In this document: in pieces, positions 9,761-12,700 of the stretch | How positions within the stretch are numbered: the first letter of the stretch is position 1 | How the letters are laid out: each line of letters begins with the position of its first letter | Assembly (NCBI GenBank): GCA_963804425.1 | Contig: CAWDQF010000009.1 | Location: 92,666 to 156,665 of the forward strand | Direction: 5' to 3' | DNA length: 64,000 nucleotides | From: an uncultured Verrucomicrobiae bacterium | GTDB lineage: Bacteria > Verrucomicrobiota > Verrucomicrobiia > Chthoniobacterales > JAFAMB01 | Translations under genes and position numbers: made by a program | Notes under the pieces: generated by a model | What the model was told of the DNA's origin: nothing | Database searches by the model: none | What the model saw: the letters and a program-made list of their open reading frames with translations, nothing else

Positions 9761-12700
9761 TCAAGAAACTACCAGGTCCGGGTAAGCTAGGCGCACTTTT
9801 ATTCTAGGACCTTCGCTGACGATCACCCCGGTACCGGCATAATTCGTGGGAGTGTATTCCCGACTGAATATGCCGGCGCCGAAGTCAATCGGCGGAAGTG
9901 GAAACCGCGCGACGTTGGTGACGATTAATCCGTTGCGCGGATCAACTAACCCCATCCGGTCGACAGCAGCGAGTCCTCGCTGGGTCCGTAACTTATCGAT
10001 CATTGCTGAATAACGGATGAAAGTTGTGGCGTCACACCGGCGAATCTCATCAGAGATCCGCACCGCCAGTTGCCCGATCGAGGCATTCCGTACTGCTTCA
10101 TTTGATAGACGGATTAGCGCCGGTGCTGAAGCGTTACCGAAAAATGCCGGTGACAATTCGGGTATGATCCGGCGAAAATCGATCGGACAAGCCAATGTCA
10201 ACTCTCCGGAATCTTCAGGAAGCGAACGCGCATAGGTCTGCCATACTAGAGCGGCAAGCACACCATTCTCGGTAAGCCGGACACGTGTCTCGGCGTCCGC
10301 GCCTTTCCGCGCTTCGGCCAAGAGCGACTCCGGATCGATATGAAGCGTCTCGATCCGCTGGGTCGTTGGGTCAAAACTTGGGTCAACCGGTGTAAGATTC
10401 ATTTCTGCTTCGCTTGCTGAAATCTTGTCGCCCTGTTTTTCCTGATAGATCTTTGCTAAACGTGCGAGTATCGCCCGAGAGTGATCCGGGACCTGGAAGG
10501 GTTCTGACCGGCTGGCGGCCGCCCAGGCCGAAAGAAAATAGTAGTAACTGTAACCGTCCGCGATTGCATGCGAGACGTTCACACTCAACAGACTGCCACG
10601 CTCCAATTGGATCAACCTGAACTTCGCCAGCTTCTCGCTGGCCAACAATGGATTGAACGCGACCCGGAAAGATTCGAATGTAGCCGGTTCATCCTGTTGA
10701 GGAAGCGAGACCGCTTCACCACAAACGATTTCAGCGAAATCAGGAGTATCCGACGATTCTGCGATCACGTACTCGCGATCCCCGTCGGGTACAAGCTTTG
10801 AGTTAATTGGATAGAACTCTTTGGCGACTCGCTCCAAGCCGGTCTTCAGCCGTTGGAAATCTAAACGATTTTCAAAGTAGTATAGAACCTGAATGGCTAA
10901 CCGACGCGGATCAACAAAGAGATAATCGGTGGGCGCCAACTCGAGCCTTCGGCGTAATTCAGCGGTTCCACCGAGCCGGGCAATCGAGATTCCGTTAGTC
11001 GAAATTGCTTGGTCTCGCCGCTCAATCAAACGTTCTCTTTGGTTCGAAGTTCGTTCGATCAAATAGGCGGCAAGCGACTCGATTGTCGGGTACTCAAAGA
11101 GCAATGTCTGGGAAAGCTCACCGAAATCCTTTGCTAAAAGTTGGCTGAACTCGACCGCCAAGATGGAATCGAACCCATAGCTCTCAAGCGACTCCGCCGG
11201 CTTTACCTGCCGCTCTTCCAGTCTCATGACCGTCGCAAACACTCTGGTGAGATAGGCTATCAGTTCCGTCTTCGAGGTTCCCGGCTTTGGCTCCTCGCCC
11301 CTAGCTCTGGCCGTCGACTGGCAGGACTGGGGTTCTACCCGTCCCGCCAATAACCGCGTCCGAATCTTCTCTCTGTCACCAACCCCAGTCCAAACCTGCA
11401 CCAACTCGCTCGCCAGAGCGTACTCAAAGAGCTGCAATCCTTGGTTCGGCTCCAACAACTGCAGTCCGAGCGCCGCGGCCCGATCTGTCTCGAAGTTTCC
11501 GCTCATTCCTCCACCACGCCAAAGCGGCCAATTAATCGATAGGGTACGACCGGAACGCTCTCCGTTACGTCGCAATTCTTCACGTCGATGGGCAAACGCA
11601 TCGAGGTAGGCGTTGGCATAAGCGTAGTCGCTCTGGCCGGCGTTCCCCAACAACCCCGCCATCGAGGAGAAGACAATAAAGCAGTCGAGCCGTTCCTGGA
11701 CGGTGGCTGCATCAAGAGCCTCTGCGCCCCTGACCTTGGGTCCTAGAACCGCCCCAAAATCCGCTGAAGTCTTTGACCAGATCAGTCCGTCGCGCAACAC
11801 ACCGGCTGCGTGAACTACGCTGTTGATAGTGCCGTAGCAATTTTTGACGTAATCGACCGCTTTCTGTGCTCCCTCCCAGGTGCTGATATCGGCACTAACA
11901 TACGCGGCATTCCGCCCGAGATCTCGCAGAACCGGTTCGTCCAGGCTCGATCGGCCAGCAAGAACTACGCGCGCATCATATCGTTCAATGAGATATCGGG
12001 CAAAGATACGGCCCAAACCACCTGCTCCTCCGGAGATCAAATAAACGGCGCCACGCCTCAGTGCCGGCTGATCAGCGTTAGAAACGGAAGCCGTTTCTAA
12101 GCTCCGGACCTCGCGCCGACCAGCCAAATAGCGCACCTCTAGTTCCGCATTTTCTAGCTCCGGCAACAGATCAACAGATTCGCTATCTATCCCGATTGTC
12201 TTTAGCTGCAGATCAGGTTGTTCCTGTAGAAGGGTCTTAGCATAGCCGCCGACCGCTTCGAAAGCCGGGATGCCAACCGGATAAAGGAACGCAATCGGTC
12301 TCCTTTTCTTGGCCTTCAGAAGAGCTTGTACCAGCAGGTGGACCGAAGACACTCCAGACGCCAGCGCCTCGTCCATGGTAGGCGTCGGACGCGACCAGCG
12401 ATGAATCACCCGAGCAAACTCGGTTTCTTGAACAAGCCTTGCGTAATCGGCACCGTCTTCGCGACGAATTGTGACCGTGTCTTCCGAACGCTGGTAGCAA
12501 TCGCCGCAAATCACTCTTACGGTCGCGACTTCTTTCTGAGACAAGGTATTCGCCAGTTCGGTCTGATCATCGAAGAGCAATAAGGGTCCCTTCATCGACG
12601 TCCCGTTCGTTGCAACTGATTCAGACTGCGACCAGCGAGGCGTGAAGAAAAACGGTTCCGCTTTGCCAGTCTGCGCCCGGCGGAGACTCAATCCCAAGAT

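Follow-up and report, generated by a model that had tools for sequence, protein, structure and literature searches.

A BAHD-type acyltransferase domain at the C-terminus of a verrucomicrobial trans-AT polyketide synthase, a candidate thioesterase-independent release domain

How does an assembly line without a thioesterase (TE) set its finished chain free? This question is raised by a stretch of 64,000 nucleotides (hereafter, the window) from an uncultured Verrucomicrobiae bacterium (assembly GCA_963804425.1, contig CAWDQF010000009.1, positions 92,666 to 156,665), which harbors three collinear megasynthase open reading frames (ORFs) on the minus strand, coding for a combined polyketide synthase (PKS) and nonribosomal peptide synthetase (NRPS) of the trans-acyltransferase (trans-AT) type. 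The original prediction was that the last protein of the series, encoded by ORF1, terminates in a BAHD-type acyltransferase domain instead of a TE. The analysis confirmed that the terminal 398 residues of ORF1 belong to the BAHD/PF02458 family, and not to the condensation (C) or CT domains of NRPSs; as for its role, we favor, with some reserve, the release of the chain as a macrolactone. The domain and its landmarks are located as follows:

9764..10957, minus strand: BAHD-type terminal domain (Pfam Transferase, PF02458), ORF1 residues 6040-6437, 398 aa, assigned from Pfam, the PDB, AlphaFold2 (AF2) and Foldseek
9761-9763: stop codon of ORF1
10553..10570, minus strand: HxxxDG motif (H-A-I-A-D-G) with the putative catalytic His, H6169 of ORF1, aligned with HHAADG of HCT
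9872..9886, minus strand: DFGAG, a variant of the BAHD motif DFGWG, aligned with DFGWG of HCT (family consensus DFGxGP)

The scan of residues 6040-6437 against Pfam retrieved PF02458 with an E-value of 2e-21 and 76.6 bits (gathering cutoff 22.7), from position 36 to position 384 of a profile of 434; the score exceeds the cutoff by 54 bits, and about 350 profile positions are covered. No match with PF00668 (Condensation) was found at E<=1, so that the region was not placed among the ordinary C or CT domains. The only other Pfam family listed for it was PapA_C, below threshold (E=0.094, 12.6 bits, cutoff 30), and no family was matched in the NCBIfam scan. Probing all PDB sequences with phmmer gave HCT (5kjt) as the best match (E=1.7e-12); plant BAHD enzymes represented 17 of the 19 matches at E<=10, the lower ones including rosmarinate synthase, spermidine and agmatine transferases, and vinorine synthase.

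In the phmmer alignment with HCT, four blocks of the domain are in register with those of the plant enzyme: FYPINSKL with FYPMAGRL, SHAIADGYS with QHHAADGFS, FFGNA with YFGNV (the BAHD YFGN block), and IDFGAG with ADFGWG. The three motif blocks that had been recognized near the end of ORF1 are, therefore, all present in the translation and aligned with the corresponding motifs of HCT, and the position given for the catalytic His was borne out, H6169 being residue 130 of the domain. Compared with the HHxxxDG motif of C domains, the domain reads S-H-A-I-A-D-G, with the second His, the Asp and the Gly kept and the first His replaced by Ser. Moreover, when the alignment of its homologues (A1) was compared through hhalign with the window's own C domain (59603-60871), the probability was 0.8%, and the 38 aligned columns all lay around HxxxDG.

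The AF2 model of the domain, built on 23 sequences, reached a pLDDT of 89.9 and a pTM of 0.88. The structural comparison that had been suggested retrieved BAHD enzymes only: the top 50 of 50 PDB matches of the model in Foldseek belong to this group (TM 0.62-0.77, E down to 1e-21), among them HCT, TRI101, SDT/SHT, COSY, EPS1, AmAT7-3, ACT, and vinorine synthase. According to this model, the domain is predicted to adopt the two-lobed BAHD fold of vinorine synthase and HCT, and to be full length rather than truncated.

The plant HCT clade (AtHCT 5kjt, PvHCT 5fal, and SbHCT 4ke4), the fungal TRI101 and vinorine synthase share with the domain the PF02458 assignment, the two-lobed fold, and the HxxxDG, YFGN and DFGxG motifs in register. 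In comparison with the plant HCT clade, the domain is bacterial, about 20% identical and about 30-50 residues shorter, has lost the Trp of DFGWG, and is fused to an acyl carrier protein (ACP) at the end of a megasynthase; furthermore, its donor would be an acyl-S-ACP and not an acyl-CoA, and its acceptor is likely intramolecular. Classic BAHD enzymes are free-standing, whereas this one represents the ACP-BAHD end of a 6437-aa PKS.

We then asked how far this arrangement is shared. A search of 5.8 billion proteins retrieved 22 homologues with 43-69% identity, many of which are metagenome fragments composed of an ACP and PF02458, while a scan of 1.84 billion representatives gave 473 matches. The top group of these (46-88% identity, E<=1e-96) always forms the very last part of long PKS proteins (P0023 with 6427 aa, P0027 with 5509 aa, P0025 with 2267 aa, P0026, and P0028); past a clear gap, the matches are standalone bacterial proteins of about 390 aa, with about 30% identity and E-values of 1e-50 and weaker. 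The PKS termini that make up the fused clade fall into about nine Verrucomicrobiota clusters at 50% identity, and the named members of the clade are Verrucomicrobiota: a Chthoniobacterales metagenome-assembled genome (MAG; L001, 68%), Limisphaerales, and a "Verrucomicrobia bacterium". A scan of contigs with exact 8-mers of the window protein reached one close relative, the Chthoniobacterales MAG at 68%. The fusion of a BAHD domain to the end of a PKS had been considered unusual; it is so, but it is not unique, since it recurs in each of these nine or so clusters.

In the alignment of 23 sequences, S-H-A-x-A-D-G-Y-S is at least 90% conserved, FFGNA is invariant, and the block C-P-x-D-F-R-R...F-F-G-N-A together with W-A-x-A-C-R shows full or at least 90% conservation. 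Across the clade, D-F-G-x-G is retained, whereas the Trp is not, and the complete sequences all end about 35 residues after D-F-G-x-G. According to these data, the terminal domain is conserved and apparently catalytically intact. Directly behind an ACP, it occupies the very C-terminus in the window and in the related loci L001, L002, L004, L005, L007, and L012, as it does in the long representatives named above. The terminal module takes two forms: KS-DH-KR-ACP-BAHD in the window, L001, L004, and L005, and ...ACP-KS-(~400 aa)-BAHD in L002 and L007. Locus L005 is a fully syntenic orthologue (PKS, PKS, AT, AT, ABC, small ORF, Band7, DUF697, RND), while in L007 a polysaccharide-synthesis-type gene and two glycosyltransferase genes are inserted between the ATs and the ABC transporter.

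Some of these loci show peculiarities of their own. In L002 (10001-14494), the BAHD domain is frameshifted and called as a separate 284-aa gene, directly followed by an IS91-type transposase and an integrase, with no ATs there; the copy may be decaying or rearranged, or the long-read assembly may be at fault. L004 (8296-24825) has one isolated PKS of 5509 aa, with four KSs and ACP-BAHD at its end, surrounded by defence-type genes (DNA methylase, BREX-like and others); a transposase lies upstream, and neither flank contains AT genes within 8-10 kb. The standalone PF02458 proteins (P0029-P0169; loci L003, L006, L010, and L011), one of which is named as Bacteroidota, have H(A/G)xxDGY and DFGxG motifs and represent the nearest non-fused relatives of the PKS domain. 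The neighbours of four of them (P0029, P0034, P0036, and P0038) are not consistent (one thiolase, one esterase, one set of aminotransferases) and give no clue to the type of donor.

If the domain acts on the finished chain, the module that precedes it should reveal what it receives. The domain follows a KR and then an ACP whose GFDS serine site is intact, and the last module of ORF1 is composed as follows:

14213..15340, minus strand: KS of the last module, elongating, with DTACSS, HGTG, and NIGH
12665..13465, minus strand: DH of the last module, with HxxxGxxxxP and DxxxQ present
11513..12049, minus strand: KR of the last module (PF08659, E=6.9e-45), catalytic Tyr in the context SDYAYAN
11063..11254, minus strand: last ACP (module 13), GFDS phosphopantetheine site (PF00550, E=2.5e-13), putative acyl donor for the BAHD domain

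Since both DH and KR are intact, a 2-enoyl thioester is predicted at release. After the stop codon of ORF1, the same strand carries trans-AT 1, trans-AT 2 and an ABC exporter; next in order are the genes for a small secreted protein, for Band7 and DUF697, and for an RND pump:

8864..9748, minus strand: trans-AT 1, malonyl-type (PF00698, E=1.4e-37), with GHSVG, the Arg, and AAFHS present
7885..8940, minus strand: trans-AT 2, acylhydrolase-like (PF00698, E=2.8e-33), with GQSLG and the FabD-type Arg absent
6229..7854, minus strand: ABC exporter of the cyclic-peptide type, conserved beside all the clusters of this type examined

No TE or alpha/beta-hydrolase family was found by Pfam in ORF1-3 or in the seven downstream genes (9.7 kb). 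The statement that no GxSxG thioesterase closes the assembly line thus holds for the PKS ORFs, and a TE encoded downstream, which would have deprived the domain of its terminal role, was found neither in the window nor after the PKS of the syntenic orthologue L005 or of L007, nor in the accessory genes of L012, which extend for approximately 16.6 kb past the stop codon of its PKS.

Which product, then, is to be released? The module order was established with Pfam and with phmmer seeds taken from the domains of the window itself:

58412..63976, minus strand: ORF3, N-terminus off the window, ER-KS-ACP-C-Acore
29086..58428, minus strand: ORF2, 9780 aa, Asub-PCP and then modules 3-9, KS-MT / KS-DH-KR-MT / KS-KR-ACP / KS-ECH / KS-DH-KR-ACP / KS-DH-ACP / KS-LLM-KR
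45298..45852, minus strand: KR of module 5 (ORF2 residues 4193-4377), the pal-equivalent source of a C-19-type hydroxyl (role from the pal model, PMC8739492)
9761..29074, minus strand: ORF1, 6437 aa, modules 10-13, ACP-KS-DH-KR-ACP-KS-KR-ACP-KS-DH-KR-ACP-KS-DH-KR-ACP-BAHD

This order can be compared with that of the pal cluster of Ca. Synoicihabitans palmerolidicus (MIBiG BGC0002118; Avalon et al. 2021, PMC8739492), where palA ends with the Gly C-A and is followed by 11 elongations (cMT; DH-KR-cMT; KR; ECH; DH-KR; DH/KR; LLM-KR; DH-KR; KR; DH-KR; DH-KR), with the accessory genes AT, AT, polysaccharide-synthesis/LO (lactone oxidase), ABC, Band7, (SBP), PPTase, NMO, an HCS cassette, GTF and CT (PMC8739492). 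The module order of the window is that published for pal modules 2-13, namely a Gly-type NRPS module (of putative specificity) and then 11 KS modules, although the DH of pal module 3 and the KR of pal module 8 were not detected in the window by the phmmer seeds. Furthermore, the accessory genes AT, AT, ABC, Band7 and DUF697 agree with the pal figure legends, DUF697 also being noted in the pal cluster (PMC8739492). Judging from its gene and module order, the window is a palmerolide-type trans-AT PKS/NRPS cluster.

The parallel extends to the chain terminus. The pal cluster, too, has no TE, and the non-canonical terminal domain of PalD keeps the second His of HHxxxDG; it was called a "truncated 133-aa condensation domain" and was aligned to the PF00668 seeds and to the terminal C domains of basiliskamide and phormidolide (PMC8739492). 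It occupies the same slot, after the DH-KR-ACP of the last module in a 13-module, Gly-containing trans-AT PKS/NRPS, and in both systems two ATs, an ABC transporter and Band7 follow the PKS and the catalytic His of H-xxx-DG is kept. By its published description, the PalD terminus would differ as a 133-aa, PF00668-like truncation, whereas the window domain has about 395 aa and belongs to PF02458. Moreover, the two clusters have different ORF breaks, and the downstream side of the window lacks the polysaccharide-synthesis/lactone-oxidase genes as well as the HCS, GT and CT genes.

The locus L012 bears directly on this discrepancy. It was reached through the homologue search with the window's ABC exporter, as the contig of a 560-aa NCBI homologue; a sister ABC cluster holds an Opitutaceae MAG protein. 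Its gene order is carbamoyltransferase, GT25, ECH, ECH, HMG-CoA synthase, KS, ACP, NMO, PPTase, SBP, Band7, ABC, GT, a fusion of polysaccharide-synthesis and ALO (lactone oxidase) genes, AT, AT and a PKS terminus, that is, the complete pal accessory set. This PKS ends with DH-KR-ACP-PF02458 (E=2e-14, 53.5 bits, no Condensation match), and its terminal domain shares 51% identity with that of the window over 395 aa (E=2e-143). Since a locus with the full pal gene set ends in this way, the published "truncated C domain" of PalD is very probably a full-length BAHD-type domain, of which the earlier annotation would have caught only the HxxxDG part.

We also considered whether the window could represent one of the five pal biosynthetic gene cluster (BGC) copies that have been published. 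This was rejected: Band7 lies on the opposite strand, no polysaccharide-synthesis/LO gene follows the ATs, the split of pal module 4 between palB and palC is not found in the single 9780-aa ORF2, and the L012 domain is only 51% identical. The window cluster appears to be a free-living relative of pal.

In the light of these comparisons, it seems rather probable that the BAHD domain replaces the TE as release catalyst, through the intramolecular O-acylation (macrolactonisation) of the ACP-bound enoyl thioester. The original prediction had proposed ester or amide formation with a separate acceptor, or macrolactonisation, rather than hydrolysis; we favor macrolactonisation because a pal-type cluster yields a macrolactone and no other kind of natural product has been linked to clusters of this type, and we keep the ester or amide as a rival. 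These products are 20-membered macrolactones, and palmerolide has a conjugated C1-C3 ester derived from the DH-KR of the last module, with the C-1 ester intramolecular (PMC8739492). The phosphopantetheine arm of ACP13 would bring the (E)-2-enoyl thioester, at its full length, into the channel that separates the lobes, in the manner of the pantetheine arm of acyl-CoA in HCT; His6169 of HxxxDG would deprotonate a hydroxyl acceptor, which would attack the 2-enoyl thioester, and the chain would depart as an ester. The acceptor would most likely be the chain's own hydroxyl set by the KR of module 5 (C-19 in the palmerolide numbering), with the formation of a large macrolactone. We infer all three elements, i.e., the role in release, the acyl-S-ACP donor and the intramolecular acceptor, from the mechanism of the HxxxD acyltransferases (HCT/vinorine synthase and the C/CT domains of NRPSs).

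Several points weigh against this interpretation. To our knowledge, characterized BAHD enzymes use acyl-CoA and a separate acceptor, and an intramolecular reaction on an ACP-bound donor is without precedent in the family; both the release role and the function of the clade are proposed from sequence, a structure model and the analogy with pal. The Trp of DFGWG is replaced by A, P or other residues. The sequence upstream of position 64000 is outside the window, and a release enzyme might be encoded there; the related long-read contigs L008 and L009, which reach further upstream, show cis-AT modules and no cluster start, and the homologue search with the N-terminal part of ORF3, aimed at the upstream end of the cluster, gave only fragments and unrelated KS proteins. 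The window contains no HCS cassette, carbamoyltransferase or glycosyltransferase genes, so that its product may differ from palmerolide; of the pal accessory set it shows AT, AT, ABC, Band7 and DUF697 only, and the rest, which is missing downstream, may lie upstream beyond the edge of the window. As for the analogy itself, the equation of PalD with a BAHD domain, however probable, rests on the identity in gene content of L012 and not on the deposited PalD sequence; the L012 assembly (GCA_964480585.1) is distinct from the published pal MAG (JAGGDC), and the assignment of pal to palmerolide A is itself bioinformatic, the producer being uncultured (PMC8739492, PMC8636102).

The same evidence can be read in other ways. 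A separate alcohol or amine (a sugar, a polyol, a shikimate-like acid or an amine) might accept the chain from ACP13, with a linear ester or amide as the product and any macrolactone formed later or non-enzymatically. This is the canonical mode of BAHD enzymes, the nearest relatives with solved structures (HCT, rosmarinate synthase and the spermidine transferases) among them, and glycosyltransferase and sugar-modifying genes lie beside the PKS in L007 and L012; the fungal CrmA has the architecture A-T-PF02458 (PMC5974471) and the crmA-dependent products include mannitol and hexose esters (PMC9381783). Nevertheless, no acceptor-supplying gene is common to the window, L005, L007, and L012, whose shared neighbours are only AT, AT, ABC and Band7 (plus DUF697, except in L012), and the palmerolides, the sole product family linked to this cluster type, have an intramolecular C-1 ester; we regard a separate acceptor as unlikely. 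A domain that uses acyl-CoA, the canonical BAHD donor, could also O-acylate the chain while it is still bound to the ACP, leaving release to the second AT (7885-8940), which has acylhydrolase-like features, to an unseen TE, for which the upstream end of the cluster off the window would leave room, or to spontaneous lactonisation. However, PedC-type acylhydrolases serve for the proofreading of short, stalled acyl units and not for dedicated release. In every locus examined, moreover, the domain stands just where a release domain would, directly behind the last ACP and as the C-terminal end of the protein, and the pal-type accessory genes of L012 contain no TE over about 16.6 kb. In addition, palmerolide A carries a carbamate, and no transferase-installed acyl ester has been proposed for it (PMC8739492). 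Such a tailoring role is, in our opinion, quite improbable.

The remaining possibility, i.e., a degenerate or truncated C domain (a relic or a C-type cyclase) rather than a BAHD enzyme, could appeal to the published alignment of 133 aa with the PF00668 seeds and the basiliskamide and phormidolide terminal C domains (PMC8739492), to the membership of C and BAHD enzymes in one HxxxD superfamily, and to the resemblance of SHAIADG to HHxxxDG. At the level of family assignment, it is refuted by the profile, hhalign and structure results, which, respectively, placed the region well above the PF02458 cutoff with no PF00668 match, failed to align it with the window's own C domain beyond the motif, and gave a confident two-lobed model of 398 aa with BAHD enzymes and no C domains as its top 50 structural matches; the domain is also full length, with its motifs conserved. 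We, thus, give this explanation hardly any credit. On balance, macrolactonisation by the BAHD domain is the reading that we retain.

Other TE-less systems show how it relates to known modes of offloading. Fungal NRPS CT domains, the terminal C domains of basiliskamide and phormidolide, and that of lasonolide (LasO) share with the window domain the chemistry of the HxxxD superfamily, the C-terminal slot and a putative TE-less release by an O- or N-nucleophile; however, by sequence and by nearest structures they belong to another family, apart perhaps from LasO, whose terminal domain could be of either type. The fungal ICS-NRPS-like CrmA (ICS-A-T-PF02458) has PF02458 directly after the carrier and as the last domain, as in the window (PMC5974471), and its products are esters (PMC9381783). 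CrmA differs in being eukaryotic and single-module NRPS-like, with a small acyl group, an intermolecular polyol acceptor, and a transferase role that is putative. Likewise, the cAT release domains of fungal HR-PKSs (e.g., that for luteodienoside A) have an acyl-CoA-type acyltransferase fold at the PKS C-terminus and offload by esterification, but they belong to the carnitine/choline acyltransferase family, occur in fungal iterative PKSs and use an external polyol acceptor (PMC10901484). The lasonolide paper, which also concerns Verrucomicrobia (10.1101/2022.05.23.493085), describes a terminal "condensation" domain in LasO and a separate 1.1-kb contig with a "truncated condensation domain"; both might likewise belong to the BAHD-type clade and have been misclassified.

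The genes next to the PKS deserve some comments of their own. Trans-AT 2 has GQSLG in place of GHSxG, VIKQAELV compared to VKQRAELM of trans-AT 1 (i.e., no FabD-type Arg), and DYPFHS in place of AAFHS; these features would be in keeping with a PedC-like acylhydrolase used for proofreading more than with an AT used for loading, whereas the equivalent PalF has been proposed to load the starter unit (PMC8739492). The ABC exporter and a Band7/SPFH protein accompany every cluster examined (window 3706-7854, L005 31246-35231, L007 13079-16812, and L012 8894-11683); a DUF697 protein is present in the window, L005, and L007 but not in L012, and is named in the published pal figure legends. These genes, with or without DUF697, may represent a conserved export or self-protection module. 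A protein 99% identical to the ABC transporter of the window was found in JGI metagenomes, with near-identical genes on contigs of 163 kb and 233 kb.

Two further aspects concern the upstream megasynthases. The A domain of the NRPS module is split over two polypeptides at the Acore/Asub hinge (58412-58428): ORF3 ends just past AMP-binding (PF00501), and ORF2 starts with AMP-binding_C (PF13193) and a PCP, with an overlap of 17 nt between them. The break recurs with an 8-nt overlap in two related clusters (L008 12059-12066 and L009 16251-16258), and in the pal cluster the carrier protein of module 2 starts palB (PMC8739492); on these grounds, the split looks genuine and not the result of a frameshift error. 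The visible start of ORF3 (61877-63976, minus strand) encodes an ER-type zinc-dehydrogenase domain and then a KS, and is cut by the window edge. In L008 (3437-7285) and L009 (1738-4410), cis-AT PKS modules lie upstream of the equivalent KS-ACP-C-A, so that the pre-NRPS part of these pathways would be a cis-AT/trans-AT hybrid, unlike pal BGC 4. Within ORF2, one additional domain was located:

30772-31701, minus strand: luciferase-like monooxygenase (LLM) domain (ORF2 residues 8910-9219; PF00296, E=1.5e-46), between the KS and the KR of module 9

Its position equals that of the LLM proposed for the C-10 alpha-hydroxylation in palmerolide.

A literature search retrieved no paper describing a BAHD-type domain in a trans-AT PKS, and nothing bacterial on BAHD enzymes and PKS offloading. 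The domain would be an offloading variant of the HxxxD superfamily, one that had very probably been seen already in pal but classed there as a truncated C domain. In a broader perspective, we see about an even chance that a distinct clade with the BAHD fold was recruited in the Verrucomicrobiota as ACP-dependent macrolactone synthases, which would make it the first BAHD-type release domain of bacterial modular PKSs, and that the "truncated C" domain of palmerolide, and possibly of other verrucomicrobial macrolides, is the same enzyme. If so, it would represent a fourth lineage of the HxxxD family in PKS/NRPS offloading, beside C/CT, PapA5/WS-DGAT-like and cAT domains, and the BAHD fold would be able to run an intramolecular reaction on a carrier-tethered donor. 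TE-independent release domains decide between acid, ester, amide and macrocycle and are sought for PKS engineering. A BAHD-type macrolactonising domain would correct the annotation of the pathway for palmerolide, an anti-melanoma V-ATPase inhibitor from an uncultured symbiont, and would provide genome-mining tools (antiSMASH and transATor) with a new rule by which to recognize terminal domains in a set of Verrucomicrobiota clusters from soil, freshwater and the sea. It would also widen BAHD chemistry from soluble plant and fungal acyl-CoA transferases to bacterial carrier-dependent cyclases, and a free-living relative of pal could give a more tractable route to palmerolide-like compounds.

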